DNA from: a virus
IMG/VR virus record: IMGVR_UViG_3300010399_000040
Span: 3,427-67,426 of that record
Reading direction: 5' to 3' (one strand)
DNA length: 64,000 bases
The translations under genes and the position numbers were made by a program. This document shows, in pieces, positions 1,592 to 58,674 of this stretch. Each line of letters opens with the position of its first letter. The stretch's first letter is position 1. The notes beneath the pieces are model-generated. The model was not told the DNA's origin. It worked only from the letters and a program-made list of their open reading frames with translations, and made no database searches.

Positions 1592-2015
1592 GCTCCACCA
1601 GAGCTCCATCGCCGGAAGTCAGTTCGGTACATCCGAAGCACGCGAGGCCGACGACGTCAACGACGTACGGACCGACGCCCGGTAGGTCGCGCAAGTCCTT
1701 CCACGTGTCGGTGAGGAACACCTGCGAGAAGCGGACGAGTCGCGTCGCGCGAGTGTGTTGGAAGCCGAGTGGTCGGAGCAGATCAGCGAGCTCGCGGCGG
1801 TCAGCCTTCGCGAGCGACGGAGGGTCGGGGTAGCGAGCGAGGAGCTTCGCGAGCACCGGTTGCATCGCTACGCGCCGCGTGCGGTTCAGCAGAATGCTCG
1901 CGACGCACACGCGCCACGGGCATCCGCCGAGCCCACACTGTATAGGGACGGCGTCGAAGTCCAGCTCGTCCGTCGTAGCGAGCGTCAGCACGCGCTCGCG
2001 GGGCAGAGGTATCAC
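1542..2015 (-). CDS. HhH-GPD family DNA glycosylase (endonuclease III/MBD4-like)
   Basis: PWRVCVASILLNRT, LLRPLGF, LRDLPGVGPYVVD helix-hairpin-helix motif; GTG start overlapping upstream TGA. Confidence 0.8.
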   Translation of the reverse strand: MIPLPRERVLTLATTDELDFDAVPIQCGLGGCPWRVCVASILLNRTRRVAMQPVLAKLLARYPDPPSLAKADRRELADLLRPLGFQHTRATRLVRFSQVFLTDTWKDLRDLPGVGPYVVDVVGLACFGCTELTSGDGALVEHARRLRAEGAFACGRD

Positions 2016-2437
2016 CGTAGCTCCTTCAGCACTTGGAGGTGCTTGCACGCGCCGTTGGTCTTGAACTGCCAGCAGGAGCACGCACCGCCGACGACAGTGT
2101 GCTCCTCCGCGTCGTCGTGGGTGCCGATCACGCTCCAAGTGTCGGGTCCTACCTTGCAGACAGCGAAGGTCTGCGCGTTACACACCTTCAGCACGCGCCG
2201 ACCCTCGACCACGTCGAGGATCACTTTGCGCTGTAGCGGCGTCAGCTGCGCTGCCTTCTTCGCTATCCTGTGGAGCTTCGGCGGCTTCGGCTTCCTCGGT
2301 GGCACCGGCACCTCGCCGAGGTAGGAGTTCGCGTTGACTCTCGCGAGCAACTCCCCGATCGTCTCCTTCGGCTTGTGCCCTGTCGTGTAACTGCTAGCGA
2401 GCGTCCTACCTTCGCTGCTCGGGTCGTGGTTAGCCAT
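2012..2437 (-). CDS. SWIM zinc-finger protein
   Basis: CSCWQFKTNGACKH; start moved to ATG 2437 because the upstream part of the track ORF is a ribozyme. Confidence 0.7.
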   Translation of the reverse strand: MANHDPSSEGRTLASSYTTGHKPKETIGELLARVNANSYLGEVPVPPRKPKPPKLHRIAKKAAQLTPLQRKVILDVVEGRRVLKVCNAQTFAVCKVGPDTWSVIGTHDDAEEHTVVGGACSCWQFKTNGACKHLQVLKELR

Positions 2438-2454
2438 CGCGACGTCTCTCAGAG

Positions 2455-2515
2455 CGACCTGGCTCATCAGCGTGCGGCGGTCAGCACGCACAGACGCCCT
2501 TGCGGGCGTTTCGCC
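2455..2515 (-). ncRNA. type II hammerhead ribozyme HHR1 (GUC, cut 2493/2492)
   Basis: GGC-GAAA-CGCCC(GCAA)GGGCG-UC|UGUGCG(UGCUGACCGC)CGCACG-CUGAUGA-GCC-AGGUCG; loop UGACC pairs with tail GGUCG. Confidence 0.92.
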
Positions 2516-3421
2516 TCACTTGACAATCGCAGGTATCGCAGCCTTCGCGTGGTAGTTAAGCGAGGTCGGCTCCTCCTTGCGCCATGCGTTCCACGCGTGG
2601 AGGCACTTAACGTACATCTCACGGGAGGCGACAATCTTACGTTCTATTCCGGATCGCCTCGTCATTGAAGCTCTTACGAGGAACCGTGCGAGCACCCTCG
2701 TCGGACACATGTTGTCCGGCGCAGACTCGTCCTTCACTTTCGCCCAGAACTCCGTCGCAGCTCCTCGCGTCGAAGAGCGATCGAAGGTCGCCATCATCGC
2801 GCGCACTACAGGTTCGCGGAGCATATGCTTCGCTGGAGACATAGCAGACTTCGTGTCGCTGCTGCCGCAGAGCTTCTTCAGCCAGAGGCAGAAATCCTGA
2901 CGCTCGATGAGCTGCTCAGCTCTCTCCGCGTGGGGCACGCGCGCTATCTCTGCATCAGACCACTTCAAGTTAGCTGCCGCCGACACCGTGAGGTTGATGT
3001 ACTTCGTACCGACGTCTTTCAGCTCCGGGATCGTAGCAGCGAACGACAGGTTGACGTCGCTATGCGTCCTGCTGGACAAGTTGCTGTCGTAAGTGGCGTA
3101 CAACATAGCCGCGTCGTTCAACGTGTCGCACTTCCACCGCTCCAGGATAACGTAGAAATCAAGAGGGAGCTTCTCCTGTGAGCCCAGCATAACTGACGTG
3201 TGCTTGCCGTTCACTCGGTACGTGCAGTTAGTCTCCTTGCAGAGCACCGACGCCCACGTGACAGGGCGAAAGTTTCCGTCCTTCAAGATGCGGCGGTACA
3301 CCAGCAACCGTCGTTCGCTCAACGGACGATCGTGCGGCGCCGGTTCCATCTCCACGAACTCCTTGACCAGCGCCTGCGTAGGCAATATCGTCCTCGGTTT
3401 CTCCATCTGCGACCATGCCAT
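2516..3421 (-). CDS. ParB/DGQHR-like N-terminal domain protein
   Basis: DRPLS...RVNGKHT resembles the DGQHR motif; GAGG RBS. Confidence 0.5.
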   Translation of the reverse strand: MAWSQMEKPRTILPTQALVKEFVEMEPAPHDRPLSERRLLVYRRILKDGNFRPVTWASVLCKETNCTYRVNGKHTSVMLGSQEKLPLDFYVILERWKCDTLNDAAMLYATYDSNLSSRTHSDVNLSFAATIPELKDVGTKYINLTVSAAANLKWSDAEIARVPHAERAEQLIERQDFCLWLKKLCGSSDTKSAMSPAKHMLREPVVRAMMATFDRSSTRGAATEFWAKVKDESAPDNMCPTRVLARFLVRASMTRRSGIERKIVASREMYVKCLHAWNAWRKEEPTSLNYHAKAAIPAIVK

Positions 3422-3440
3422 TGCAATCTACCTCTGCGAG

Positions 3441-3501
3441 GGAACTGCCTCCTCAGCAGCGAGAGTTCATCCTCGCTGGACGCCCTTTCGGGCGTTTCGG
3501 C
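3441..3501 (-). ncRNA. type II hammerhead ribozyme HHR2 (GUC, cut 3479/3478)
   Basis: GCC-GAAA-CGCCC(GAAA)GGGCG-UC|CAGCGAG(GAUGAACU)CUCGCUG-CUGAGGA-GGC-AGUUC; pseudoknot GAACU/AGUUC. Confidence 0.93.
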
Positions 3502-3705
3502 TCACTCCTCGTCGGTGTCCTCCGTCACTACCATCTCGTTGATGGACTCCCTCAACTGCACGACCTCATAGTCGTCGATGTTTGGCTCGCCGTCGAACTC
3601 GCTCAACTTATCGTTGAGAGCATCGTTCGCGGCGTCCTCCGTGTCGTAACTGCCGTACACGCAGCAGGCGCTCACGTGGTTGATGCCGTACTTCATCGCG
3701 ATCAT
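3502..3705 (-). CDS. small acidic hypothetical protein
   Basis: ORF with GGAGG RBS; stop abuts HHR2. Confidence 0.6.
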   Translation of the reverse strand: MIAMKYGINHVSACCVYGSYDTEDAANDALNDKLSEFDGEPNIDDYEVVQLRESINEMVVTEDTDEE

Positions 3706-3716
3706 CCTCCGGGGTT

Positions 3717-3746
3717 AAGATACTGTCTCTTATATGCGAAAGTCTA
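3717..3746 (-). promoter_or_regulatory. candidate internal sigma70 promoter
   Basis: TAGACT-N18-TATCTT in an AT-rich intergenic gap. Confidence 0.35.
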
Positions 3747-4349
3747 CCTCACACCTCCGATCAGCTGAGCCACGATCCGGTCGGCGCACACAGGGCCGAT
3801 GCCACGTGTGACGCTCTCCGGCGTAGTCAGAGGCCGACCGCAGCATCCGCATCGGCCCTCGTGGTGTATCCTGAAACCGTTCGCTTCGATTACGTCGAGT
3901 TCGTCGGCGAACAGACGCTTCAGCACCTTGTTGAGCAACTTCACAGGGAAGCTGTCGAGGGAGTAGCTGCTCCTCCCAGTGACTCTGACTTGGCCGTCGA
4001 CCAACTTGCCGACGTACGTGTAGTCGGCCGTGTTGTTGGGGCCCGTCAAAAGCTTTACGAAGTAGGCCACTGGCCAGTTACCGTTCGCCTCCACGCGTTG
4101 CGCCCTGTAGGTGTAGTGTCGTGCTTCCGTCGCGCGGTAGCGCTCCGGTATCTCGACGGTGAAGATAGCGTCACCAGCTAGGAGCCAGCTACTGGAGAGT
4201 CGAAAGCTTTCGGTTGAGCTCTCTGGCCTCGGCGTGGGCTCGCTGACGGTCTCCTGTGACGAAGACGACGTCGAACCATCCGTCAGCGCAGACGAACCCG
4301 ACGAAGAACGCTCTTTCGTCTGGGCATACAACGACTTGGTACACGACAT
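3744..4349 (-). CDS. DUF6011-like zinc-ribbon protein
   Basis: C-terminal CGCCGRPLTTPESVTRGIGPVCA. Confidence 0.75.
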   Translation of the reverse strand: MSCTKSLYAQTKERSSSGSSALTDGSTSSSSQETVSEPTPRPESSTESFRLSSSWLLAGDAIFTVEIPERYRATEARHYTYRAQRVEANGNWPVAYFVKLLTGPNNTADYTYVGKLVDGQVRVTGRSSYSLDSFPVKLLNKVLKRLFADELDVIEANGFRIHHEGRCGCCGRPLTTPESVTRGIGPVCADRIVAQLIGGVR

Positions 4350-4369
4350 GGTACTCTCTTCCAGCGAGG

Positions 4370-4429
4370 GAACTGCCTCATCAGTGCGGAGAGTTCATCC
4401 TCCGCAAACGCCCGTGAGGGCGTTTCGGC
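4370..4429 (-). ncRNA. type II hammerhead ribozyme HHR3 (GUU, cut 4407/4406)
   Basis: GCC-GAAA-CGCCC(UCAC)GGGCG-UU|UGCGGAG(GAUGAACU)CUCCGCA-CUGAUGA-GGC-AGUUC. Confidence 0.93.
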
Positions 4430-4639
4430 TCAAGTTTTTATTGTCGATTCCAACAAGAAGCCTATTGAACTCTTCTTCGTCCGCTCCAGACACTTGTCAC
4501 ACACTGCCAGGCCGCTACCCCTTGGTCCGCCTACATTCTCGCCGCCGAACTCAAATCCAGCTGTGAAAGGTTCATCGCAAAAATCACACATAGGCCATTC
4601 ATCTTTGACAGATAGCCTCCGTATGCGTCGAATCTGCAT
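4430..4639 (-). CDS. small zinc-finger protein
   Basis: CDFC...CDKC; GGAGG RBS. Confidence 0.6.
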   Translation of the reverse strand: MQIRRIRRLSVKDEWPMCDFCDEPFTAGFEFGGENVGGPRGSGLAVCDKCLERTKKSSIGFLLESTIKT

Positions 4640-4787
4640 GCTTCACCTCCTCTCCTGTGAGGGTATATGTCGGAGCTTCCTCTCCTTCCACCCACGTGTA
4701 GAAGTTCGGTAGGTTGTTCATCCGCAGGAACTCCTGCCGCTCCTCGAACGGCAGGAGTTCCGCGATCTTCTCAAGCTCGGTCCGCAT
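4599..4787 (-). CDS. hypothetical protein
   Basis: ORF MRTELEKIAELL... overlapping neighbours. Confidence 0.45.
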   Translation of the reverse strand: MRTELEKIAELLPFEERQEFLRMNNLPNFYTWVEGEEAPTYTLTGEEVKHADSTHTEAICQR

Positions 4788-4980
4788 TCGCCACCGCCTC
4801 GTGGAACTCGCCACGGTAGTAGGCCGCCACCACCTCGTTCAAGGCGTCAGCTACCATCGCAGCGACGTCGCCCAACGGAACGTTGCCTCCGCCGGCGTCA
4901 GCTTGGTCCACTTCCAACTCGCCGGAGACGATTAGCGTCCTATCCGGCCTCATGGAAGCAGTGAAAGGTCTCGGGTACAC
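4771..4980 (-). CDS. hypothetical protein
   Basis: GTG start after GAGGAG RBS, downstream of HHR4. Confidence 0.55.
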   Translation of the reverse strand: MYPRPFTASMRPDRTLIVSGELEVDQADAGGGNVPLGDVAAMVADALNEVVAAYYRGEFHEAVANADRA

Positions 4981-4996
4981 ATTGCTCTCCTCATGT

Positions 4997-5067
4997 TGAG
5001 GGGACTGCCTCATCAGTCGGAAGCATTTCAAGCTTCCGAAACTTGGAGCAGAGCTCCAAGTTTCGGC
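4997..5067 (-). ncRNA. type II hammerhead ribozyme HHR4 (GUU, cut 5040/5039)
   Basis: GCC-GAAA-CUUGGAGC(UCU)GCUCCAAG-UU|UCGGAAGC(UUGAAAU)GCUUCCGA-CUGAUGA-GGC; loop UUGA may pair with downstream UCAA. Confidence 0.9.
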
Positions 5068-5068
5068 G

Positions 5069-5479
5069 TCAGATCGCGAGAATCTGCTTGAACTTCTTAA
5101 TCGTGTCCATGTGAGGATTGCGATAGAGCACGTAATCACCGTCTCCGACCTTGACGAGCAGATCGCGTTCGTACTCACAGCCCCGCCACGACCCGTGCAG
5201 CCAACCGACGACGTTCTTGTTCATCCACGCGCTGAACGAAGGTTTACTCGCCAACTCTTGGGCTTCCTGCCGCTCTTCCTCAGTTGCACCACTGGGAGTC
5301 GAGTACTTCGCTTCGATGCTCTTGAGACGTTGCTCCTCAACTGGCGAACGGAGAGCGACTGGAATGAGCGCCTGCAGATCGCTGAAAGTGCCGATCGACC
5401 TCATCTGCTTGAGGATGCTCTTGGTGAGCTTACAGGTCCGCAACTCCGCTTCGCCAGTCCGGACAATGACATCTGCCAT
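5069..5479 (-). CDS. hypothetical protein
   Basis: ATG after AAGGAG RBS (MADVIVRT...). Confidence 0.6.
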   Translation of the reverse strand: MADVIVRTGEAELRTCKLTKSILKQMRSIGTFSDLQALIPVALRSPVEEQRLKSIEAKYSTPSGATEEERQEAQELASKPSFSAWMNKNVVGWLHGSWRGCEYERDLLVKVGDGDYVLYRNPHMDTIKKFKQILAI

Positions 5480-5568
5480 GGTAAAACTCCTTGTTGAGCT
5501 CTGCTCGGATTGAGTCAGTAGCTCGTGTAGTGCTGGCTCCGGGCTCCAGCACAGCGCGAGACACTGCG

Positions 5569-5787
5569 TCAGTGCCACCAGCACACCTCGCAGATCGGGC
5601 ACACGAGGGTGTGACCATGCTGCGTGATGACTACCTTCTCATGGGCGTCGTCGTACCTCCAGCACTTCGGGCACTCGTGACCTGGGTCGTGACCCAAATC
5701 AGCGAGTCGCCGACCAGACTCAGTGAACATCGCGCAGTGGAACTTGACCCTGTCGCACAGGGCGGGTAGAGAGTCCATCTCTTTCAT
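5569..5787 (-). CDS. small Cys/His-rich zinc-binding protein
   Basis: HECPKC...CPIC. Confidence 0.55.
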   Translation of the reverse strand: MKEMDSLPALCDRVKFHCAMFTESGRRLADLGHDPGHECPKCWRYDDAHEKVVITQHGHTLVCPICEVCWWH

Positions 5788-5798
5788 TCTTCGCGAGG

Positions 5799-5860
5799 GA
5801 CCTGCCTCGTCAGGCGACGGAGGTCGTACCGTCGCGACACCGCTTGTGCGGTGTTTCGGC
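5799..5860 (-). ncRNA. type II hammerhead ribozyme HHR5 (GUC, cut 5836/5835)
   Basis: GCC-GAAA-CACCGC(ACAA)GCGGUG-UC|GCGACGG(UACGACCU)CCGUCGC-CUGACGA-GGC-AGGUC; pseudoknot GACCU/AGGUC. Confidence 0.93.
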
Positions 5861-6429
5861 TAGAACTCACCTGTGTAATTCCTGAGCTTCATCGCATCGG
5901 CCTCTCGGCCGTTGTCGCTGAGGTAGTCGCAGTACACGTCTATCGGCAATCGTTCGTCTGGGTTGTCGAGGATCGCTTCCAAGAGAGCGTAGTGGTCGCG
6001 CCCAGCGAACGATCCGGCGTTCTTCGCTTGGGAGTAGAGTAGAAGCAACTTGAGGAGGTCCTTGCGGCACTCTTTGTCGGTCACTGAGTAGTTGTCGCAG
6101 TCGGCGTTCGCCCTCGCGACACCCGCGGCATTGAGCTGCAGTCGTACGGGAGCTAACCACTGCCTCAGTTGCGCCTCATCAAGTCGCTTAGTCTCGGCGG
6201 AAGCTAACTCGGGAAGGCGAGCTACGATGTGCATCACTGCCTCGAGCACTTGAGCGCGCCTGAACCGACGCCCCAAGAACACCGCTGTTCGGGGACCGCG
6301 GAGGTTGACGTATATCTCGACTCTGTTTCCGACGTGTATCGTTGCGCTGTAATAACCATGCGCTTCTAACCTCGCGTTCACACCTCCGGCGTTGAGCGAC
6401 TGGACGACGGCGTCCAAGAAGTCCTGCAT
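5860..6429 (-). CDS. protein with C-terminal TIGR02996-like domain
   Basis: ALLEAILDNPDERLPIDVYCDYLSDNG; ATG 6429 after GGAGG. Confidence 0.65.
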   Translation of the reverse strand: MQDFLDAVVQSLNAGGVNARLEAHGYYSATIHVGNRVEIYVNLRGPRTAVFLGRRFRRAQVLEAVMHIVARLPELASAETKRLDEAQLRQWLAPVRLQLNAAGVARANADCDNYSVTDKECRKDLLKLLLLYSQAKNAGSFAGRDHYALLEAILDNPDERLPIDVYCDYLSDNGREADAMKLRNYTGEF

Positions 6430-6446
6430 GAACTCTTCCTCCGGAG

Positions 6447-6513
6447 CGACCTGGCTCATCAGCACGTGGAGGTCGTTCCACGTGGACACCGGGCTCTCAC
6501 CCGGTGTTTCGCC
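6447..6513 (-). ncRNA. type II hammerhead ribozyme HHR6 (GUC, cut 6485/6484)
   Basis: GGC-GAAA-CACCGGG(UGAGAG)CCCGGUG-UC|CACGUGGA(ACGACC)UCCACGUG-CUGAUGA-GCC-AGGUCG. Confidence 0.93.
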
Positions 6514-6960
6514 TTACTTCGTGATACCAAGCGCTTTGAGTTGCTCCTTGACCCGCTCGGCTTCCGCCGGGTTGGTCGCGAGCAGCGTCTTGAGCATCTC
6601 GGTCACCGAATCGGCCGTCACGGCCTTCGGAGCGCGAGGCGCCTTGCCGATCTCCTCCGCAGTGCCACCGAGGTGGTGGAGCAGCGGAGTGCCGACAGTC
6701 ATGAAGTTGTGACTCACGACAAAGTAGGTCTTTCCATGGAGGTCGACCTTGAACGCTCGCCGTGGCCCGCTGTCGCGCGCGCTCGCCGCCTTCACCGCCT
6801 CCTCCGAAGTGGCGAAGATCGCTGGAAGGTCCTTCCAGCTCGTTTTCTTCTCCTTCTTCGGAGCGTCACCGGCCACCGGGACCTTCGCGTCCCCACCCTT
6901 GTGGGTGGTGGGAGCGGTCTGGGCTTTCGGGGAAGCGGGGGCCGTCTTGACATCTGCCAT
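6514..6960 (-). CDS. Ala/Lys-rich hypothetical protein
   Basis: ATG after AGGAG (MADVKTAPASPK...). Confidence 0.6.
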   Translation of the reverse strand: MADVKTAPASPKAQTAPTTHKGGDAKVPVAGDAPKKEKKTSWKDLPAIFATSEEAVKAASARDSGPRRAFKVDLHGKTYFVVSHNFMTVGTPLLHHLGGTAEEIGKAPRAPKAVTADSVTEMLKTLLATNPAEAERVKEQLKALGITK

Positions 6961-7014
6961 TGTAGAGCTCCTGAACGCAGCTTCAGTGGGTGCTGCTGGA
7001 CCCGTACCGAGGAA

Positions 7015-7079
7015 AACCTGCCTCGTCAGAGTGGGTAGGTTAACTCCCACCTACACTGCACTATATGCAGTGTTTCGGC
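7015..7079 (-). ncRNA. type II hammerhead ribozyme HHR7 (GUA, cut 7052/7051)
   Basis: GCC-GAAA-CACUGCA(UAUAG)UGCAGUG-UA|GGUGGG(AGUUAACCUA)CCCACU-CUGACGA-GGC-AGGUU; pseudoknot AACCU/AGGUU. Confidence 0.9.
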
Positions 7080-7084
7080 TCGCA

Positions 7085-7303
7085 TCACTTGATCGAGAAC
7101 TCCTTAGCCGTCTCCTCGCGGTACTTCTTGTAGAGGATGGAGTACGACGGGGAGTAGTGGCAGCTCAACTCGGGGAACACTTCGCGATCGATGTCACGGA
7201 AAGTCGCGCCTTCGAGTCGCTTCTGAGCGACCTCGTCGGTCAAGTACTTCTGGACACCGCTAGGGAGCTTGTTGAAGTCGCGGAGAATGGACTTAGTCTG
7301 CAT
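7085..7303 (-). CDS. hypothetical protein (first gene of early operon)
   Basis: ATG after GAGGTG RBS (MQTKSILRD...). Confidence 0.6.
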   Translation of the reverse strand: MQTKSILRDFNKLPSGVQKYLTDEVAQKRLEGATFRDIDREVFPELSCHYSPSYSILYKKYREETAKEFSIK

Positions 7304-7330
7304 AGAGCACCTCGTGTATTTGAGTGAGAG

Positions 7331-7392
7331 GAACTGCCTCATCAGTGCGGAGAGTTCAACCTCCGCAGAGCAGTCACGAGACTGCTTTCGGC
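7331..7392 (-). ncRNA. type II hammerhead ribozyme HHR8 (CUC, cut 7368/7367)
   Basis: GCC-GAAA-GCAGUC(UCGU)GACUGC-UC|UGCGGAG(GUUGAACU)CUCCGCA-CUGAUGA-GGC-AGUUC; G15.2-C16.2 covariation. Confidence 0.92.
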
Positions 7393-7609
7393 TAGATGTG
7401 GGTGGCCGCTCAGGATCGACCCGTAGGTCGCTCACCCGTCCACCTTGTGTCGGCCTCGGTCGTCGCTGCCCACTTTCCGTCGTGGGTCTTGCCCAGCGCG
7501 ACTCCGACCCGAATTGTCAAAGATATGTCATCAAGGAGTTAGAGGGTCGAGTCAGCAGAAGGATTCTTCGTCTCTTCTCGCTCTCTTTCTCGCTCCATAC
7601 ATTAGATAC

Positions 7610-7637
7610 ATCATAGCAGTGAAAGTTTCAGAGTCAA
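7610..7637 (-). promoter_or_regulatory. sigma70-type early promoter
   Basis: TTGACT-N16-TATGAT with extended -10 TG, upstream of the ribozyme-punctuated operon. Confidence 0.65.
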
Positions 7638-8528: not shown

Positions 8529-9038
8529 TCACATGGGATCATCGCGGCCGCCGACTACGCCTTTGACGACGTCAATGAGCTCCTTGATGGGTCTGCTGGC
8601 GTCCAATCGGATGTACCTGTACTTCCGCACTTCCTCCCTGTATATCTGGACGAGCCTCTCGTATTTCGCCATGTCGAAGAGCGGATCGGGAGAGGCTGTC
8701 CAGCGTTGCTTCAACGTAACTAGTGGACAATCGAGGTAGAGGATGACGGACTGACGCCGCCAGAACGACTCATTGTGCGTGGAGACAGGACGACCGTAGA
8801 GGCGACCGTAGACGACGTTCGTCAAGCTCATGTGGCGGTCCACGATGTACGTCTTGGAAGGATCGTAGAGCGATATCCACAGCCTCTCGAAGCACCGTTC
8901 GACTTGGTCGACGATCTTGAGTATGTCGGACGTCATAGGAAGCGTAGGTACGAACGTGGCGTGAAGCCGACCTTGCAGAGCTTGAAAGAGCGTCGTCTTT
9001 CCGCTCTTGTCCGGCCCTTCGAGAGACACTATGGGCAA
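8529..9038 (-). CDS. P-loop nucleoside monophosphate kinase (thymidylate kinase-like)
   Basis: EGPDKSGKTT, IVDR motif. Confidence 0.8.
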   Translation of the reverse strand: MPIVSLEGPDKSGKTTLFQALQGRLHATFVPTLPMTSDILKIVDQVERCFERLWISLYDPSKTYIVDRHMSLTNVVYGRLYGRPVSTHNESFWRRQSVILYLDCPLVTLKQRWTASPDPLFDMAKYERLVQIYREEVRKYRYIRLDASRPIKELIDVVKGVVGGRDDPM

Positions 9039-10012
9039 CTGAGTATCCTCCGGATGTCAGCGACTGCGGTCTTGGCAGCCTCGTCGAAGCTGAAAGAGAG
9101 CATCTGCTTGAGGGGAACTTGCGCAGGGGCTTGCAACGCTCCTTCGATGCTAGCCACTAGATCAGCTCTGTCGGCGAAGTGCGGCCACTTCGGACCGATC
9201 ACCTCCGTGTACTCGTGCTTCCGCAGAACCACTGGACAGCAGCCAGCGGCGCACGCTTCGCGGAAGCTGACAGTGCTACCGACATTCTCAGTGAGGTGCA
9301 CAGAGACTTCGCACGTAGCTAGCTGCCTCTCGTACGATTCGGAAGTCGACCACGACGCCGGTACGATGCCTTTACGTCGTCCGTACCCAGTCGGATCGCT
9401 CACGTACACTCGGACCCCGCGGAGCTTCTTAGCGGCCGCTGCAAACATCGCGTAGTTCGTGTAGTCTGGATCGCTGATGCGACCTGAGAACAGAATCGAG
9501 CGGGGCACTCGCGCGGAGCTCCGTAGCTGTAGCAAGTTAGTTTCGTACCCGAATGGCCACACGTCGTCGCGGAGCTTCGACGACAGCGCGTACACGAAGT
9601 TCGCGCAGTTCCACCCTTCGCTGTACAGCGAAAGCTGCTCTGGCTTCGCTGGAAGCGTAGCTTCGACGATCGTCTTGACGTGAGGATGCAAGTGACGCAT
9701 GGGTATAGGTAGGAACTCGTTCGACGTGACGACGACGCCTCCGTCGCCAGCTAGACGAGCAAGCTCGCGCAACCGCGACGGGTCCCAGTGGAACTTCCTC
9801 TCCAGGTTGCTGACGTAACTCGTCCAAATCCTGTATACAGCAGAGGTGTCTACGTTGCCCTCGCACGCGCCGCGTTCAGGTAGGACCAGCAAAGAGTCGT
9901 CGATGAGTTTCGCTAAGTGCGCGTAGATGCGCACGCACGAATCGCTCATAAGGAACTTGTCGGTAACTTTGTTCTGCTGGGAGCAGAAGGGGTAGAATAC
10001 TACTCTCGGCAT
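9029..10012 (-). CDS. GT-B fold glycosyltransferase-like protein
   Basis: ILFSGRISD...VSFREACAAGCCPVV resembles the GT4 EX7E region; ATG 10012 after GAGG. Confidence 0.55.
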   Translation of the reverse strand: MPRVVFYPFCSQQNKVTDKFLMSDSCVRIYAHLAKLIDDSLLVLPERGACEGNVDTSAVYRIWTSYVSNLERKFHWDPSRLRELARLAGDGGVVVTSNEFLPIPMRHLHPHVKTIVEATLPAKPEQLSLYSEGWNCANFVYALSSKLRDDVWPFGYETNLLQLRSSARVPRSILFSGRISDPDYTNYAMFAAAAKKLRGVRVYVSDPTGYGRRKGIVPASWSTSESYERQLATCEVSVHLTENVGSTVSFREACAAGCCPVVLRKHEYTEVIGPKWPHFADRADLVASIEGALQAPAQVPLKQMLSFSFDEAAKTAVADIRRILSCP

Positions 10013-10503
10013 CGCACTTCCTCCCACGTGGTCGCGATCGCTTGACGAAAATCGATGTTCCACGTCTCGCAGAGACGGAGCAAATGCGCCACGTAGTACA
10101 CGATCGCACCGCGCTCTCGCGGGTCCTCGCACACGTACGCCGCTTGCCCGCAGAGCTTCGCTGCCATCAGGAAAGCCTCCTTCGGCTTTGGGAGCACAAG
10201 CGACGCGTCAGCGACGACTTTAGCGAAAGCTAAATTGTTGGCGGAGCACAGCGAGCAGACGAAGATCGCGCAATCTCCGACGGCGTCAACTAACATCGCG
10301 TTGAAATCAGCGTCTACGTAACGTCGCTCCGGATGCTTACCTCCGTTCGCTTGCTGGCACTTCAGCAGAGCGCGCATCAGCTCTCCTGACTCCTCGACGA
10401 GCCCTGCTGCCGGAAAGACTGGGAGCTGATCTGGGTACAACCTATCAAGCCACGCTCTGTGGTCGCGTTGGAACAGCTCTAACTCAGTAGCGACGACGCC
10501 CAC
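10000..10503 (-). CDS. MazG-like nucleotide pyrophosphohydrolase
   Basis: LVEESGEL...DAVGD. Confidence 0.7.
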   Translation of the reverse strand: MGVVATELELFQRDHRAWLDRLYPDQLPVFPAAGLVEESGELMRALLKCQQANGGKHPERRYVDADFNAMLVDAVGDCAIFVCSLCSANNLAFAKVVADASLVLPKPKEAFLMAAKLCGQAAYVCEDPRERGAIVYYVAHLLRLCETWNIDFRQAIATTWEEVRCRE

Positions 10504-11237
10504 GGGTAGGCCTCCGGGTTACGCAATGCGTCGAAACAGGTGTCCCTCGACGCGTCGCTTGGTACTAAGATGGACTCGTTACGGGAACCGCTCTCGAACG
10601 CAGGGTTCGGCTCTATACTGTGCAGCGAACCGAACGTCCAGAACAGTGAACCGACGCTACGACCGAGCGTTTCCGCAACGCGGATCAACACGTTCGTCAG
10701 CACGACGAGGTCGTACGGCATCACCTTCGTGAAGTTGCAGCTACGCTGGTAGACGAGCAGATCGAGTCCGTAGCGCCCGAACAAGAAGTGGAGATGTGAC
10801 CAGCACGCCGGTCTGTTGACGTCACGCGGAATCGGGCCACCCATCTGGACCACCGCCGCACGCGTGAAAGGGTCGAGCTGAAGCGCTGCGATGCACTGCT
10901 CTATCTGAGGCACCGCGATCGCTCCGTATGCTCCGATCCACCTGTCACCCGTGAGGTACTTCCCGGCGCGAGCGTTGTACTTACGCAGCACACCTGCTTC
11001 CTCCGTCGCTGCGAAGAAATGGAGCACGTTCGCTAGCGCCCATCTCCTGTCGATAGGACGCTCCGTGACGACGTTGAAGAGCGGGTTAGTCAGCTCGAAC
11101 GTAGTGCCGGGTTTCGCTTCGAACGTGAAGCCGTCGCACGCAGGCGAACTCTCCACGCGACGCACGTACTTGTGCTCACGTATAGCACTCCACATCCCCC
11201 TGTAGAGTTCGCAGGCGTTCGCGCATCTAAGCATCAC
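10479..11237 (-). CDS. thymidylate synthase-fold enzyme, probable dCMP hydroxymethylase
   Basis: GAYG, DPFTRAA, PAC catalytic Cys, YQRSCN...PYD, GSLH. Confidence 0.75.
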   Translation of the reverse strand: MMLRCANACELYRGMWSAIREHKYVRRVESSPACDGFTFEAKPGTTFELTNPLFNVVTERPIDRRWALANVLHFFAATEEAGVLRKYNARAGKYLTGDRWIGAYGAIAVPQIEQCIAALQLDPFTRAAVVQMGGPIPRDVNRPACWSHLHFLFGRYGLDLLVYQRSCNFTKVMPYDLVVLTNVLIRVAETLGRSVGSLFWTFGSLHSIEPNPAFESGSRNESILVPSDASRDTCFDALRNPEAYPWASSLLS

Positions 11238-11806
11238 AGCCTCCTGAGCACCGCTTGCTTACCGAGCTCCAGCACCTCGTACGAGTCAGCATACGCTCGG
11301 ATTAAGAAGTCGATAGCTTCCTTCGGTTGCACGGCTACACGTTTGAAAGGGCGCGAGTAATCGTCGAAGATCACGGTGCAACCTTCATTGAGCAATCGGT
11401 GCACCAACACGAAGTCCTGGACGACGCTACGTCCCTCGTGGTCACCGTCTATGTAGACGAAGTCGTAAGGTCCGCTGTGCCACAGGAGATATGCCTCGCT
11501 CCGCATACGTCTGATAGTGACCTGTCTGCGACGCGCATGTTCAGCGATGTTTCGCGTGAACACCTCGTACGTGTCGCGGAGCGTCTTCTCGCTCTCTGCG
11601 GTCCCCGTGAAAGGATCAACGCACGTGAGCCGAGCATCGCTGTGTGTCAGCAGATTATCGAGCATCCATACAGCGCTTCGCCCTTCGAAGGAGCCAATCT
11701 CCAGGCACTTGCACTTAGTACCTGCCAAGTGAAGGAGATACTTCTCCCACGTCGGGACGTGCTCGCTGAACCAGTCGACAGTGAAGTTCACAGTATCCTC
11801 CCGCAC
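11234..11806 (-). CDS. class I SAM-dependent methyltransferase (Methyltransf_24-like)
   Basis: LEIGSFEGRS, YIDGDH, IFDDY. Confidence 0.85.
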   Translation of the reverse strand: MREDTVNFTVDWFSEHVPTWEKYLLHLAGTKCKCLEIGSFEGRSAVWMLDNLLTHSDARLTCVDPFTGTAESEKTLRDTYEVFTRNIAEHARRRQVTIRRMRSEAYLLWHSGPYDFVYIDGDHEGRSVVQDFVLVHRLLNEGCTVIFDDYSRPFKRVAVQPKEAIDFLIRAYADSYEVLELGKQAVLRRL

Positions 11807-16765: not shown

Positions 16766-16837
16766 TAGTGGAGCGGACGGGAGTCGAACCCGTTTTTCTT
16801 CAGCCTACTGGACTGAATAATACGACCGGTACACCCC
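16766..16837 (-). ncRNA. tRNA-Ala/tmRNA-like element lacking D stem and canonical anticodon arm
   Basis: GGGGUG.../CGCUCC-A acceptor with G3:U70, T arm ACGGG-UUCGACU-CCCGU, central 7-bp hairpin. Confidence 0.5.
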
Positions 16838-21648: not shown

Positions 21649-21918
21649 TTAGCCCCTTTGTTTGCGTAGCATACGTTTTAGGTGCCTGTGTATCTGCTCC
21701 AGCGTGGCTTGGGCGGGATCGTGAGGCGGCCACACTTCAGCCTTGACACAGGGGGACAAGGCTGATTTGGGTACGGGCACGTACTTTCCGCGGCCGAAGA
21801 TCGTGCGTCCAGTCTCGGTGTCTACGTAGTCCCACTCCACTATTGCGACCGTCTCAGTCTCCGAGACGACGTCGCCGTGGGCGGTACCAGTCACGTCAGC
21901 CCACGTTACGCGCGACAT
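21649..21918 (-). CDS. hypothetical protein
   Basis: coupled ORF. Confidence 0.45.
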   Translation of the reverse strand: MSRVTWADVTGTAHGDVVSETETVAIVEWDYVDTETGRTIFGRGKYVPVPKSALSPCVKAEVWPPHDPAQATLEQIHRHLKRMLRKQRG

Positions 21919-22090
21919 TGTCTTTGGCCTCGGTTACTTCGCGACGGTCGATGATCACGTCCGCGGGAGCGTCGAAACAGAGGCGAATCTTGTTGCGGTC
22001 GAGGTCCGATACAGTGATGGAGAACTGGACGTCGCCGACCTTCACGTCGACGATCTCGCCCTCTCTGCGAGTGAGCACTAGCTTGGGCAC
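21896..22090 (-). CDS. csrA: carbon storage regulator CsrA homolog
   Basis: LVLTRREGE...ITV...KIRLCFDAPADVIIDRRE. Confidence 0.85.
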   Translation of the reverse strand: MPKLVLTRREGEIVDVKVGDVQFSITVSDLDRNKIRLCFDAPADVIIDRREVTEAKDNVARNVG

Positions 22091-28129: not shown

Positions 28130-28311
28130 GGAGTAACGTAGGTCGCCGTGACGGGCACGTCGCGACGAGCGACGTCGTAATCTACACCGACGAGGAGTTC
28201 GAGTTCCTCAAGGCAGTCGACAAGTACAAGCGCGAGAAGCGCAGACCCTTTCCAACTTGCTCCGAGATACTCGCTATCGCCCGTGCGCTGGGCTACAGGA
28301 AGGTGGCGTGA
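28120..28311 (+). CDS. small conserved protein
   Basis: YTDEEFEFLKAVDKYKR..RPFPTCSEIL..LGYRK. Confidence 0.55.
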   Translation: MPVRSNVGRRDGHVATSDVVIYTDEEFEFLKAVDKYKREKRRPFPTCSEILAIARALGYRKVA

Positions 28312-31300
28312 TGAACCGCCTCTGGGTTAACGATCCGATACTCGTCAACAAGCTTGAAGAGATGGAGAAGCGTATGATCGCGAACGAGACGGGCATGTCT
28401 CGCGTCGCGTTGTTGGCGCAGATGTTCGATCCTCGACGTGACATCGACAACGAATGCGGATACCCGAAGAACACGTTCTGGAGCGCCGACCAGTACCAGG
28501 ATTTGTACGAGCGTGAACCCGTCGCGAACCGTGCGATACAACTCTTCCCGAAGGAAGCGTGGCAACGCTTACCGAGCATCTCCGAGGACGAGGACAGTCG
28601 GCACTTCACGAAGTTCGAGCAGGCGGTGCAGGACTTCTCTCAGAAGCTCAGCGCCAGTTCGTGGCACTCTGACACGACCGGCGTCACGTTGTGGGAGCAT
28701 TGTCACCGCATCAACACACTGTGTAGGGTCGGTTCGTTCGGTCTGCTGCTGATCGGCCTCGACGACGGCAAGGACTTGAGTGAACCCGTCGACGGCATGG
28801 TCACGGTCAACCGCCGCTTGGAGCCCATCTACAGGGTGGACGCAGAGGGCGATCCTGTGCTCAACTCCGCGGGAAAGCCTACGCAAGCCGGCGTGCGAGT
28901 AGTGAAGGAGGGTGATGCTGTCCCAGCTTTTCCTGATGGGCCGATCCTCCGCAACGAGCTCACTGCGCTGCGCAACCCTGTCAAGCTGACGGAGGACCAA
29001 ATCAAAGCGGGCGTGCGTCAGACGCCCGCTCTCAACGATGCGGAGGCGGCGGTCGTCGCTAAGTGGGAACGAGGCTGGGTCGAGGACGCTCCTGTATACG
29101 CGCGGCGTGAGGAGGTCGTCAACAAAGTCGCGACGACGTTCAGCGACTTGACTGCGACGGGGCAGCAGAGCATCCAGGGCACCGACCAGCAGTACTTCGG
29201 TGTGCAGTTCGGTCCGACCCAGCAACCTGCTCAGAAGCCAGTCAAGGCGGGTGACGTCATCTTCATGCAGGAGTTCGGTGAGCCCCTGGTGCAGATCGTG
29301 CGGTACGAGTGGAACATCCGGAATCCGCGCTTTGGCATGCCAGTCATGTACCGCGTGACGCTCAATGATCCCAGGCAGGTGCACAGCGGCGTCGGCTTGC
29401 CTCTCGCGACCGTCTTCGTCCACTGGAGTCGCGTGATCCACGTCCACGACAGCTACTCCAACCCCGGGTCGTCGCGCATCTTTGCTTACCCGGCGCTCAT
29501 GCCGATCCTTAATCCCGTGCTCGACATAAAGAAGGTGCGCGGGGCCAGTGCGGAAGCTTACTGGAAGAACTGCCTCGCGTCGCTCAGTCTTGAGACGCAT
29601 CCGCAGCTCGGTGGCGACGTGGACGTCGACAAGCAATCGCTGAAAGACATGCTGGAGCAAAAGAACAACGGGCTCCAGCGCGACATCATCCTCACTGGAA
29701 TGACAGCCAAGACGATCGCTCCGCAGGCGGTCGATCCGACGCCGTACATCGCTACGCAGATCGAAGCCATCTGCATCCAGCTAGGGTGTCCGATACGCGT
29801 GTTCAAAGGCGCGGAGCGTGGTGAGTTAGCCAGCTCCCAGGACGACGCTGATTGGAACGACCGGATCATGGGATACTGCAACGGGTTCTGCACACCCTAC
29901 ATCATCGCGCCGCTATTCGACAGGCTCATCATGTTCGGTTCGCTGCCCGAACCCGAGTCGTACACTGTTAAGTGGCCGGACCCGGAAGCTCTCGGCGACG
30001 CTGAGAAAGCGACCGTCGGGCTCACGCTCACTCAAGCGATGGCGGCGTATAACCAGGGCGACGTCAAGATGCTCGTCGGCGTTGAGGACTACATGGTGGG
30101 CGTGCTCGGCATGGACCAGGACAAAGTGGAGGAGTGGGTCAAGAACGCGCAGAAGGCGGCCGAAGACGAGCAAGCCGATCAGCAGGCTCTCGCTGACGAG
30201 CAAGGTTTCGAGCCTGCGCCTCCGCCGGGTTTTCAGACGCCCGTCGACGACAGCGAGACGCCCGTCGACGACAGCGAACCATTGGCGAACCTCCGCAGCG
30301 CTTGGAACGCGTTCTGCGCCACAGGCGAAGGCGGTGGAGTCGATCCTACGTGCTCTTCATCCGAGCATTCTTCGGCAGCTGACTCTAGCGAGAAGCTAGC
30401 CAGATCGCTGACTCAGCAATCTAAGGCGGCCGCTTCTCAGGGCGTACACGAAGTCGCCGACGCCTACGCGCACGCTGCTCAAGCGACTCGTGAGGTAGCC
30501 GGCAAGCACCGCGAGCTAGCTCAGGAACTCGCTAAAGACGAGCGAGTGGCTGCTTCACAGAGTAAAGTGGCTGCGGCGGAACGTCGAGTCGCTGAGGCGA
30601 AGCAGAAGGAGGCTGATGCGCGAAGGAAAGTCGAGGCGCTCCGTCAGAAGTACGGTATAGCTGCCAACGAGTGGAGCGATGCTGCGCGCGAGGCGGCGCT
30701 AGAAGCACGGCGGGCGAAGATGGCGGGCAAGGAAGTTCCGGAGCACCTCATGGAAGCGGAGCATTTGCTGCACCTGGGTCACCTCAGCACCGAGGTGAGA
30801 GAGGTCGCGGAGCACCTCGCGACCGGCCACTTCGGCGTCGAAGACATCGCTACCGTCGTCGGTTCCGCTCTCAAACCTCTTGCGCTCAAAGTCGGCGAAG
30901 CTTTGCAGCGGGTGCCTGGTGCGAAGGCTGCTGGTCACGCGTTGGTCGCTCTCCACGACAAGTGCAGAGACATCGCTCACGCCGCGATTGTTCGCGCTAT
31001 AGAGAGGTACGGGCACGGGGCAGTCAGCGCGGCGATCGGCGTCGGCGGGTTCGCATCGACGATGGCGGCGAAGAGCGTCGGACTTGGCGCGGCTGAGGCG
31101 GTCGGCCACAACGCTGCGAAGTACGTGGGGGCGATGCCGATCCTCGCGCTCGCTGAGGTTGGCCACCAATTGGGCGTCGTAGCGCCTCACACGAAGCTCG
31201 ACAAAGGGTTGACGTACACCGCCACCAAGTTGTTCGTGATGAGGGAGGCGGCGCACATCATCGCGCGGAGCGCCGTCAGCAAGGTGATCAGTAAAGTGAC

Positions 31301-32240
31301 TGGAGGCAAGGCGCCTGTGGGCAACGCAGATATCGTCGGCGAGATACTCAAGGAGGTCGGAGACAAGTTCACGCACGAAGCGAAGGCGGACTCGCTCCTG
31401 CTTCAAGGCGACGGCGCGGACCACATGTTCAGCGCGTTGGAGTCGCTTACGACCAACGCGTTCTGCGCTACAGGCGAAGGTGGTGGAGTCGATCCGACCT
31501 GCAGTCCAAGCGGTGGCCGCGGCGGCGGTGGCGACGCTGCGAAGGGGCTCAAGGGCAGCGGTACGAAGGAGGATCCGTACCAGTGCGGTGCTGACATCGA
31601 GAAGGCAGCGGTGCTCCTCGCGGGTGGACACCACATCACGCTCGCTCAACCGGACCAGGTGTCTTCGCTCCTCGACAAGATCGCTTCCGTCGTGAGCCAA
31701 GCGAAGGCAGCCGGCAAGGAGGCTCCGAAGTACAACCTGTGCAACGTTAGCGTGCCGAAGACGAACCTCTTCTGCCAGGACAGCCTCGGCATACCGCGCA
31801 TCAAGATGCCTCAGCTCGACGGTAGCCCTCTCTCTGGAACTAAAGCTGCCGGTATGCCGCGCGAGAAGAATGGCAACGTCGACGTGGGCCCGGCGTTCAT
31901 CGAGTACATGGCCTCGAAGGGAGTGACGCACACCGACGAGATTGTCTCAGCGTCGCACCTACGTGCGTCGCAGGGTGAGCTGGTCGGGAGCAAGGTCGCG
32001 GGCATGGTGAGGGCGGCGGAGGAGCACAAGTTCGATCCGACGAAGGGAGCGATCTACGTCACGAAGGACAACTACATCATCGACGGGCACCACCGCTGGG
32101 CGACCATCGTGGGCTTGTCATATGCAGAACGTAAAGACATACGGATGCCAGTGCGTCGGTTGAACATCGACATCGGTACCGCGCTAGATCACGCGAACCA
32201 GTTCACTAAGGACATCGGGATCGCGCCGCAAGCAGGATAA
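28311..32240 (+). CDS. portal protein (DUF1073-like) with long multi-module C-terminal extension ending in a ParB-like domain
   Basis: LYEREPVA.RAI, RFGMP.MY, VHWSRVIH, GCPIRVFKGAERGELAS; C-terminal IIDGHHRW. Confidence 0.8.
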   Translation: MNRLWVNDPILVNKLEEMEKRMIANETGMSRVALLAQMFDPRRDIDNECGYPKNTFWSADQYQDLYEREPVANRAIQLFPKEAWQRLPSISEDEDSRHFTKFEQAVQDFSQKLSASSWHSDTTGVTLWEHCHRINTLCRVGSFGLLLIGLDDGKDLSEPVDGMVTVNRRLEPIYRVDAEGDPVLNSAGKPTQAGVRVVKEGDAVPAFPDGPILRNELTALRNPVKLTEDQIKAGVRQTPALNDAEAAVVAKWERGWVEDAPVYARREEVVNKVATTFSDLTATGQQSIQGTDQQYFGVQFGPTQQPAQKPVKAGDVIFMQEFGEPLVQIVRYEWNIRNPRFGMPVMYRVTLNDPRQVHSGVGLPLATVFVHWSRVIHVHDSYSNPGSSRIFAYPALMPILNPVLDIKKVRGASAEAYWKNCLASLSLETHPQLGGDVDVDKQSLKDMLEQKNNGLQRDIILTGMTAKTIAPQAVDPTPYIATQIEAICIQLGCPIRVFKGAERGELASSQDDADWNDRIMGYCNGFCTPYIIAPLFDRLIMFGSLPEPESYTVKWPDPEALGDAEKATVGLTLTQAMAAYNQGDVKMLVGVEDYMVGVLGMDQDKVEEWVKNAQKAAEDEQADQQALADEQGFEPAPPPGFQTPVDDSETPVDDSEPLANLRSAWNAFCATGEGGGVDPTCSSSEHSSAADSSEKLARSLTQQSKAAASQGVHEVADAYAHAAQATREVAGKHRELAQELAKDERVAASQSKVAAAERRVAEAKQKEADARRKVEALRQKYGIAANEWSDAAREAALEARRAKMAGKEVPEHLMEAEHLLHLGHLSTEVREVAEHLATGHFGVEDIATVVGSALKPLALKVGEALQRVPGAKAAGHALVALHDKCRDIAHAAIVRAIERYGHGAVSAAIGVGGFASTMAAKSVGLGAAEAVGHNAAKYVGAMPILALAEVGHQLGVVAPHTKLDKGLTYTATKLFVMREAAHIIARSAVSKVISKVTGGKAPVGNADIVGEILKEVGDKFTHEAKADSLLLQGDGADHMFSALESLTTNAFCATGEGGGVDPTCSPSGGRGGGGDAAKGLKGSGTKEDPYQCGADIEKAAVLLAGGHHITLAQPDQVSSLLDKIASVVSQAKAAGKEAPKYNLCNVSVPKTNLFCQDSLGIPRIKMPQLDGSPLSGTKAAGMPREKNGNVDVGPAFIEYMASKGVTHTDEIVSASHLRASQGELVGSKVAGMVRAAEEHKFDPTKGAIYVTKDNYIIDGHHRWATIVGLSYAERKDIRMPVRRLNIDIGTALDHANQFTKDIGIAPQAG
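30235..30276 (+). repeat. 21-bp tandem duplication (TPVDDSE x2)
   Basis: AGACGCCCGTCGACGACAGCG twice. Confidence 0.85.
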
Positions 32241-57334: not shown

Positions 57335-57418
57335 GGCTGCCACCCTCCTGCCTAGTTCGATCCCAGTTCTTCCAGGTTCGATCCTGGTACCTCGGGACGG
57401 GTCGATATGGGGTATTCA

Positions 57419-57880
57419 TCATCCCAGATTCGGCGGTCCCAGTCTTGATCCAGGGAGATAAGTCTTATCCGCGCTACCGACGTACGGACCCTGCTTCACT
57501 TCCAGGAACACCGACTCAGCTACCATGGTCAGCGAATGCGCTCCAGAAAGGAGTATCGCTACGTCGCCGTGGTAAAGTCGAACAGTCTCGACGTGCTCAC
57601 CCGAGCTGGCGTACACGTCGAGGTCGATGATCCCCGCGACGCAGATGAGCACCTCCTGCGTGCCTACGATGCTTCGCTTAACAGGGTTGTGCACGTGCGG
57701 AGCGATGATGTGACCCTTGGGTCGACGGAACTCCGCGAACTGCAGGGTGGCATCCTCCGGCGTCACGAAGCCCAGAGGCTTCTTCGCTAGGTTGGGTACG
57801 TTGTCGCACACTACGAGAGCGAGCAGACCCTCGCCGCCATCCGGGCTGACGTGCTCTATGCGTCTGAGTCTAGCGTCCAG
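57419..57880 (-). CDS. cupin-fold (WbuC-like) protein
   Basis: PHVH...QEVL...GAH...EVKQGPY; CTG start 6 nt after GGAGG. Confidence 0.75.
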   Translation of the reverse strand: MDARLRRIEHVSPDGGEGLLALVVCDNVPNLAKKPLGFVTPEDATLQFAEFRRPKGHIIAPHVHNPVKRSIVGTQEVLICVAGIIDLDVYASSGEHVETVRLYHGDVAILLSGAHSLTMVAESVFLEVKQGPYVGSADKTYLPGSRLGPPNLG

Positions 57881-58562: not shown

Positions 58563-58674
58563 AGCAGACCTCCCAGGACGATTCCCAACGCGATGCCAGC
58601 GATGGACCCAACGAGCAGGCCCCAGCAGAAACCCCAGGCCATGTCTTGAAAGGCAGACAGTCCGCAGCGCCCGC

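Follow-up and report, generated by a model that had tools for sequence, protein, structure and literature searches.

Natural type II hammerhead ribozymes were first described by Perreault et al. in 2011, with a loop I/3'-tail pseudoknot of at least four pairs in the majority of members (PMC3088659). Cutting this pseudoknot from six to four pairs lowered the observed rate constant (kobs) about 20-fold at 0.5 mM Mg2+; when more of it was deleted the drop exceeded 100-fold, and activity returned in a compensatory mutant (PMC3088659). The same study described prophage hammerhead clusters that flank single genes or short gene blocks, and triple arrays of Clostridium scindens, Azorhizobium caulinodans and Agrobacterium tumefaciens cut polycistronic RNAs of ~2 kilobases (kb) in vitro, one of them also in Escherichia coli; the processing of long phage transcripts was proposed as a role (PMC3088659). 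Three type II hammerheads of Desulfovibrio vulgaris cut in vivo (PMC8782182), and a 2019 review still rates the processing role a suggestion (PMC6765202). Here we describe an array of eight type II hammerhead ribozymes (HHR1 to HHR8) on the minus strand of a 64,000-nucleotide stretch of viral DNA, hereafter the window, which corresponds to bases 3427-67426 of the IMG/VR record IMGVR_UViG_3300010399_000040 (67,426 bases with direct terminal repeats, estimated complete).

The array shares with described type II hammerheads (RF02276; PMC3088659) the catalytic core, capped stems I and III, an open stem II of 3 base pairs (bp), a pseudoknot of at least four pairs with a tail starting AG, and the phage context. 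As in the prophage clusters (PMC3088659), ribozymes of the same sense lie between operon genes with variable, mostly unknown neighbours; the difference is one of number, with eight copies here and 12 in a related phage (G004), within ~5 kb, compared with the tested triples. Because both the pseudoknot and such clusters were already published in 2011, the locus is a clean new example and not a new principle: the pseudoknot, found and tested in that study, adds nothing new to ribozyme biology, and the value of the locus lies elsewhere. It is a very regular specimen (eight cassettes, with a diverged relative carrying 12) and hence a good model for the role of hammerheads in phages. It also contains a second covarying pairing, an alternative helix formed by the tail, which is a testable element that would connect the way the ribozyme folds with the next message's 5' end and merits follow-up.

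We consider it probable, at roughly 80%, that these are eight functional type II hammerheads in one long minus-strand phage message, which would cut the transcript into units and form a tail hairpin after the cut. The sequences themselves show the eight motifs, their conservation, their two covarying pairings and their placement. Exactly eight type II hammerheads were identified at window positions 2452-7392, spanning 4.9 kb of the virus genome and all on the minus strand, by a regular expression for the core together with Rfam model RF02276 (Hammerhead_II, gathering cut-off 37 bits). Minus-strand matches at or above the cut-off lie at 4367-4430 (47 bits), 7328-7393 (44.4), 3439-3502 (43.2) and 5796-5861 (37.7), and matches below it at 6450-6514 (34.5 bits) and 2458-2516 (34.2); HHR4, at ~5000-5067, reached 26.8 bits and surfaced only in a search of its own genome. 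Four of the eight copies thus exceed 37 bits, three fall below, and HHR7 was unreported at an expectation value (E) of up to 10. The pattern GAAA...CUGANGA recovered the seven Rfam copies and the eighth, HHR7, at 7023-7076, which Rfam missed. A covariance model built from the eight copies found no ninth copy in the window (filters off) or in the whole 67,426-base genome, its best further match scoring 12 bits (E ~0.8); the eight fit their own model by construction, and it informs only on a ninth copy.

All eight copies are laid out as type II hammerheads. The stem II 5' strand comes first and is followed by GAAA and the stem III hairpin, then by the cleavage site, the stem I hairpin and CUGANGA, and then by the stem II 3' strand; U16.1 and H17 lie between the stem III and stem I hairpins, and the tail comes last. 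Stem II has 3 nucleotides (nt) per strand and the stem III hairpin 6-9 bp; the stem I hairpin is 22 nt long in all copies but HHR4, in which it is 23 nt. By the definitions that Perreault et al. give in their Methods (PMC3088659), 8/8 copies have an intact core (C3 U4 G5 A6 N7 G8 A9, G12 A13 A14, A15.1-U16.1, and H17 not G). N7 is U in five copies, C in two and G in one, and H17 is C in five, U in two and A in one. Stem II reads GCC/GGC in six copies and GGC/GCC in HHR1 and HHR6. No mispair lies beside the core, with G10.1-C11.1 and A15.1-U16.1 present in every copy, and the 1.1-2.1 pair is Watson-Crick in six copies and a G.U wobble in HHR1 and HHR7.

We then aligned the eight copies with MAFFT (alignment A1; 77 columns, gap-free from H17 to the end). 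Across the 20 pairs of stems I-III and the pseudoknot, 91.3% of 160 cells were paired and 12/20 pairs changed on both sides. None of 500 shuffles matched any of the five measures for these pairs, and slid partners were only 32-42% paired. HHR2, HHR3 and HHR8 are near-identical, with stem I, loop and tail in common, and since the eight copies represent no more than about four classes of sequence, the power of the window by itself is limited.

The preliminary description of this locus had listed pairings between loop I and the nucleotides after stem II, and all of them are present: GAACU/AGUUC (HHR2, HHR3 and HHR8), GACCU/AGGUC (HHR5), CGACC/GGUCG (HHR6), UGACC/GGUCG (HHR1) and AACCU/AGGUU (HHR7). 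The partner in loop I consists of the five bases just 5' of the stem I 3' strand, which pair in register with the tail. Loop I pairs with the five bases after stem II in 7/8 copies, two positions changing on both sides, and the pseudoknot has 5-6 pairs in these seven (including one U.G in HHR1). In A1, 36/40 cells (90%) of the five in-register pairs were paired, with per-pair counts of G-C 6, A-U 1 and other 1 (pair 43-69); A-U 7 and other 1; A-U 4 and C-G 4 (pair 45-67); C-G 7 and U.G 1; and U-A 6 and other 2. Only 2/500 shuffles did as well as the real alignment in percentage or covariation score, pairing fell to 25-47.5% once the partner was slid by 1-3 columns, and when the tails were dealt exhaustively among the eight loops, 132 of 40,320 arrangements were as good as the real one. 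The displaced UUGA/UCAA version proposed for HHR4 does occur in the sequence, yet a match of this kind was reached by 538 of 5000 shuffled tails and by 2/7 tails of the other copies, which puts it at chance level, and in register HHR4 pairs at only 2/5 positions.

The pseudoknot extends beyond the window. In a model-guided alignment (A3; 28 rows, 25 distinct) covering the window, G004, G005, G006, L134 and L138, 85.6% of 104 pseudoknot cells were paired (one pair being C-G in 11, A-U in 6 and U-A in 2 rows), none of 500 shuffles did as well, and shifting the pseudoknot columns by one left 36.9% paired. With a pattern that required AG as tail bases 1-2 and a GGC stem II but left the loops free, we parsed viral-contig loci into 112 distinct type II hammerheads among the matches listed; in this set, the longest Watson-Crick run between loop I and tail averaged 4.51 for a ribozyme's own tail and 2.86 for mismatched tails, runs of at least 5 occurred in 54% versus 7%, and 0/2000 permutations reached the observed mean. 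That contact of stem I with stem II permits fast cleavage at physiological Mg2+, as the preliminary description had stated, is established for exactly this pseudoknot, and the disruption and compensation test of kobs that it suggested has already been published for other type II members (PMC3088659).

A true relative, G004, is a 64-kb record that we reached through a DNA pattern based on the ribozyme tails in the window. The two phages are 45% identical in DNA polymerase and 56% in primase-helicase, and they share a gene order of thymidylate-synthase-like, MazG-like, kinase, HhH-GPD and methyltransferase genes. At the syntenic place G004 carries 12 hammerheads within 4.8 kb, and homologues of the 148-amino-acid (aa), 136-aa and DUF6011 genes are hammerhead-flanked in both phages. 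The retention of 12 hammerheads across this divergence, the intact cores of all eight window copies, the compensatory changes in their stems and the covariation of the pseudoknot support the earlier proposal that the copies are under selection and are not decayed repeats.

The tail contains a further covarying element. After the pseudoknot strand it reads CCUC in six copies and GCUC in the two copies whose stem II is GGC/GCC, so that tail bases 6-9 (N'CUC) can form Watson-Crick pairs with all of G8-A9-G10.1-N10.2 and change in step with stem II. A 4-bp alternative hairpin, with loops of 5-8 nt, is possible in 8/8 copies. Here the tail mimics the 5'-strand segment that contacts G8-N10.2, N'-C being the same as 11.2-11.1 with U-C in place of G12-A13, and the active fold and the alternative hairpin are therefore mutually exclusive. 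The complementarity rule held in 27/27 full-length copies from the window and relatives, the relatives having been found without fixing the tail, compared with 24/228 mismatched combinations; the 27 include GAC with UCUC and GGCC with GCCUU. In A3, 91.7% of 96 cells of the alternative helix were paired (0/500 shuffles), and its variable pair was G-C in 15 rows, C-G in 5, G.U in 2, A-U in 1 and other in 1.

The rule was also evident in a viral-contig scan that fixed only CUC at tail bases 7-9. It gave 125 distinct sequences, 121 of them complementary (C:G 67, G:C 37, A:U 17; chi-square p ~1e-47), and stems I and III in this set differed to a similar degree within classes (medians 0.39-0.55) and between them (0.37-0.41). 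The end of N'CUC lies 15-20 nt from the start codon in 94/125 cases and 5-7 nt from a Shine-Dalgarno-like motif in 76/125. With free tails, GGC-type viral hammerheads (n = 108) carried CCUC in 17 cases, GCUC in 1 and ACUC or UCUC in 0, whereas GCC-type hammerheads (n = 146) carried GCUC in 58, CCUC in 0, ACUC in 3 and UCUC in 1. These 17/108 and 58/146 define a subclass that, like the present copies, has N'CUC where the Rfam RF02276 consensus tail past the pseudoknot is A-rich; HHR4 differs from the consensus also in having no supported pseudoknot. In bacterial genomes, the same pattern gave 24 hits with a paired stem II, 22 of them complementary, compared with 8/27 chance hits without stem II by our own tally of classes. 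No description of the alternative pairing was found in the portions of PMC3088659 and PMC10085705 that were covered or among the papers listed in literature searches. A pairing of N'CUC with the 5' flank of stem II was considered as a candidate and rejected, the complement being wrong in every copy by eye.

From sequence we infer cleavage itself, its role in processing and the role of the second pairing, and the following course would be expected. Each RNA would fold into a three-stem hammerhead, and in seven copies the pseudoknot would hold stems I and II side by side in a geometry that should permit fast cutting at cellular Mg2+. The operon transcript would then cut itself after H17 at up to eight sites, leaving an upstream piece terminated by the stem III hairpin and bearing a 2',3'-cyclic phosphate, and a downstream piece that begins with a 5'-OH at the foot of the stem I hairpin and has its start codon 16-59 nt past stem II. 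One polycistronic transcript would thus yield units that each carry one to three genes between standardised ends capped by hairpins. Held together by just 3 bp, the cut pieces should part at once, and the freed G8-A9-G10.1-N10.2 would be taken over from the departed 5' piece by N'CUC, forming a small hairpin. This hairpin would make the cut irreversible and would provide a uniform structured leader 5-7 nt before the ribosome-binding site.

Several observations weigh against this reading. Half of the copies fall under the Rfam cut-off or are unreported, and because the copies and their relatives share ancestry, independent events are fewer than the cell counts imply. For HHR4 no pseudoknot is supported, and about half of the 12 copies in G004, read by eye, have short loops and no pseudoknot; the pseudoknot is therefore not required in every copy, and members without it coexist with pseudoknotted ones. 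A sigma-70-like promoter match on the minus strand at 7610-7637 (TTGACT, 16 nt, TG-TATGAT, 10/12), ~210 nt upstream of HHR8, weakly suggests a candidate start of the array transcript; it is a consensus match only, and the scan returned 2 sites with 1.8 expected in shuffles. Minimum-free-energy folds of the eight 3' products disagree among copies. By nearest-neighbour energies, in which the pseudoknot and tertiary contacts are not counted, the alternative hairpin (-3.8 to -4.8 kcal/mol) is 0.6-1.6 kcal/mol more stable than stem II closure (-3.2 kcal/mol) in all eight uncleaved RNAs, so that competition from it is conceivable ahead of cutting as well as afterwards. The alternative hairpin might accordingly represent an OFF state preceding the cut, in which N'CUC competes with the stem II 5' strand for G8-N10.2 and so slows or gates cutting. 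A ribosome halted at the stop codon adjoining stem II (favouring OFF), or one loading at the ribosome-binding site (favouring ON), could serve as the gate. The hairpin appears in the minimum-free-energy precursor folds of HHR3, HHR7 and HHR8, N'CUC is transcribed just 5 bases after stem II is completed, and the tight spacing to the stop codon and ribosome-binding site would suit such a gate. However, the energies omit the very pseudoknot and core tertiary contacts that favour the active fold, and none of the sequence features tested separates action before the cut from action after it. We regard the OFF state as possible, if rather unlikely; it would alter the role of the second pairing and leave the identity of the ribozymes unchanged. 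A pure anti-Shine-Dalgarno role for CCUC, through pairing with a downstream GAGG, was rejected as the main function and is unlikely because N' tracks stem II (G, C or U) and not the ribosome-binding site within single phages; the CCUC-GAGG pairing shows in the predicted folds of only 2/8 copies.

Another explanation would treat the copies as selfish or neutral repeats, which have spread across the gaps between phage genes and retain self-cleavage in order to propagate themselves, with no gain to the phage. The near-identity of HHR2, HHR3 and HHR8, the three identical tandem units 237 bases apart in G004, and neighbouring genes that are not constant, as also noted by Perreault et al. 2011 (PMC3088659), would fit such spreading. 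Repeats of this kind would, however, hardly be expected to show the same orientation as the genes in all eight cases, the exact placement from stop codon to ribosome-binding site, an array kept in the syntenic region of a phage as distant as G004, and no copy elsewhere in the 67-kb genome, and we consider this explanation improbable. Highly improbable, in our view, is a scheme in which paired cuts free gene-sized RNAs whose ends are rejoined, by the ribozyme or a host RtcB-type ligase, into circular or spliced RNAs. The end chemistry fits and the idea was raised by Perreault et al. 2011, who nevertheless could not detect such products (PMC3088659). In addition, no RNA ligase, RtcB or polynucleotide kinase family was matched by Pfam among the 91 phage open reading frames (ORFs; 24 scanned at E up to 0.01 and 67 at E up to 1e-4), and both the 3-bp stem II and the alternative hairpin point to a release that is fast and irreversible.

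The phage type II hammerheads with N'CUC may form a large subclass with a built-in strand-exchange element, in which N'CUC either displaces the 5' product once the RNA has been cut and locks the core or, acting before the cut, makes cutting dependent on translation. The cassette would then be a natural, self-contained insulator between cistrons, with pseudoknot and lock as alternative uses of one tail; we hold the chances of this joint proposal to be about even. If true, whether as lock or as translation coupling, it would account for clean, irreversible processing by arrays and would offer a compact natural insulator design for synthetic operons.

RiboJ was engineered from a type III satellite-RNA hammerhead. 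Insulators of the RiboJ type consist of a hammerhead plus a 23-nt hairpin before the ribosome-binding site, and uncleaved RNA is said to decay faster (PMC7536230). As with RiboJ (PMC7536230), cutting at the present cassettes would remove the upstream RNA and leave the 5' untranslated region of every gene alike, and a hairpin would stand between ribozyme and ribosome-binding site. The RiboJ hairpin is a separate added element, whereas the hairpin here would be built out of the core strand of the ribozyme itself and could form only if the active fold is given up.

The placement of the copies is highly regular. All genes of the region lie on the minus strand, in the same sense as the ribozymes, which separate blocks of 1-3 genes, and each cassette runs from the upstream stop codon through the ribozyme to just short of the next ribosome-binding site. 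In 7/8 copies the distance between stop codon and stem II is -1 to +5 nt: the two abut in HHR1, HHR2, HHR3 and HHR6 and share one base in HHR5, and the stop codon is found 1 nt upstream of stem II in HHR4 and 5 nt upstream of it in HHR7, while HHR8 has no upstream ORF (none of at least 40 aa on the minus strand between 7394 and 7646). Stem II is followed by a start codon after 23, 25, 25, 26, 16 or 25, 23, 59 and 32 nt in HHR1 to HHR8, respectively, and each of these start codons is preceded by a purine-rich ribosome-binding site.

With extents counted from the stem II 5' strand through tail base 9, and all on the minus strand, the copies are as follows, beginning with HHR8, the first of the array. 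HHR8 (7328-7392; 44.4 bits) has its predicted cleavage at 7368/7367 and a pseudoknot of 7353-7357 with 7331-7335 (GAACU/AGUUC), and its CCUC (7328-7331) overlaps the last pseudoknot base. HHR7 (7009-7079), parsed manually from the regular-expression match, has N7 = C and H17 = A, predicted cleavage at 7052/7051 and a pseudoknot of 7037-7041 with 7015-7019; its CCUC (7009-7012) lies two bases farther out than in other copies. HHR6 (6444-6513; stem II GGC/GCC; 34.5 bits) is predicted to cleave at 6485/6484, pairs 6470-6474 with 6448-6452 (CGACC/GGUCG, with a sixth pair C-G), has its alternative-helix strand GCUC at 6444-6447 and abuts the stop codon at 6514-6516. In HHR5 (5795-5860; N7 = C; 37.7 bits), cleavage is predicted at 5836/5835, the pseudoknot joins 5821-5825 and 5799-5803, CCUC lies at 5795-5798, and the upstream stop codon TAG shares base 5860 with stem II. 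HHR4 (4998-5067; 26.8 bits), with its longer stem I hairpin, has predicted cleavage at 5040 (U17)/5039 and CCUC at 4998-5001, the alternative helix thus being present where the pseudoknot is unsupported.

The remaining three copies lie farther downstream. HHR3 (4366-4429; 47 bits) is predicted to cleave at 4407 (U17)/4406, with a pseudoknot of 4392-4396 with 4370-4374, CCUC at 4366-4369, the abutting stop codon at 4430-4432 and the start codon at 4349. HHR2 (3438-3501; stem II GCC/GGC, N7 = G; 43.2 bits) shares the same pseudoknot sequence (3464-3468 with 3442-3446), with predicted cleavage at 3479/3478, CCUC at 3438-3441, the abutting stop codon at 3502-3504 and the start codon at 3421. HHR1 (2452-2515; stem II GGC/GCC; 34.2 bits) has predicted cleavage at 2493 (C17)/2492, and its pseudoknot (2478-2482 with 2456-2460; UGACC/GGUCG with one U.G) could be extended by a U.G sixth pair; GCUC lies at 2452-2455, the stop codon at 2516-2518 and the start codon at 2437, 23 nt past stem II.

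The genes separated by the array lie at 2012-7303 overall on the minus strand. In the direction of transcription, HHR8 precedes a 72-aa gene, HHR7, a 148-aa gene, HHR6, a 189-aa gene and HHR5; next come 72- and 136-aa genes, HHR4, genes of 69, 71 and 69 aa and HHR3; and finally a 201-aa (DUF6011) and a 67-aa gene, HHR2, a 301-aa gene, HHR1 and a 141-aa gene onward. They are small and mostly without known family, with matches only to DUF6011 and a few function-less PHROGs; the DUF6011 gene has relatives in Caulobacter and Rhizobium phages, and no relative of the 301-aa and 189-aa proteins was found in viral contigs. Upstream of the array lie genes for DNA polymerase A, a methyltransferase, thymidylate-synthase-like, MazG-like and thymidylate-kinase proteins and an HNH endonuclease, and downstream an HhH-GPD glycosylase and a C-methyltransferase (195-2138). 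The segment just upstream (8529-11806, minus strand) encodes a thymidylate-kinase-like, an unknown 367-aa, a MazG-like, a thymidylate-synthase-like and a Methyltransf_24 protein. The combination of this nucleotide-metabolism block with the HhH-GPD and C-methyltransferase genes suggests that the phage may carry modified DNA bases.

A megablast of 7 kb against cultured phages gave no match, and the phage polymerase is at most 28% identical to that of any cultured phage. In G004, three identical hammerheads (L142:8824-8894, 9061-9131 and 9298-9368) form the tandem ribozyme-plus-spacer unit with 237-base spacing mentioned above; in these copies stem II is 4 bp long, loop I is short and the pseudoknot is lacking. 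Three other arrays were considered as relatives and rejected as independent, with no protein similarity to the array region: G001 (L064-L067/L131) carries 9 type II hammerheads above the Rfam cut-off in 6 kb, G002 (L132) 4 matches in 1.3 kb and G003 (L133) 5 matches in ~4 kb.

CsrA proteins are RNA-binding regulators whose targets are GGA motifs located in the loops of hairpins and in ribosome-binding sites. A 64-aa ORF at 21896-22090 on the minus strand matches the CsrA family (Pfam PF02599, E 1.3e-10), and loop I of HHR2 and HHR3 reads GGAUGA; a link between CsrA and the ribozyme cassettes would be pure speculation. Elsewhere in the window, ARAGORN found no transfer RNA (tRNA) or transfer-messenger RNA (tmRNA). 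A weak Rfam tmRNA match at 16766-16837 on the minus strand (22.8 bits against a cut-off of 47, E 3e-05, ~70 nt only), overlapped by a weak permuted-tmRNA match, may be a tRNA-like fragment or chance. At 55133-60524, two glycosyltransferases form a sugar-modification cluster with a DegT/DnrJ/EryC1 aminotransferase (E 7.6e-55) and a radical SAM/SPASM protein. The structural module has two unusual fusions: a plus-strand gene at 28257-32240 encodes a protein of 1327 aa whose portal domain is confined to residues 353-595, and another at 33037-34872 encodes a 611-aa fusion of a NUDIX hydrolase domain with a Mu F-like head-morphogenesis domain.

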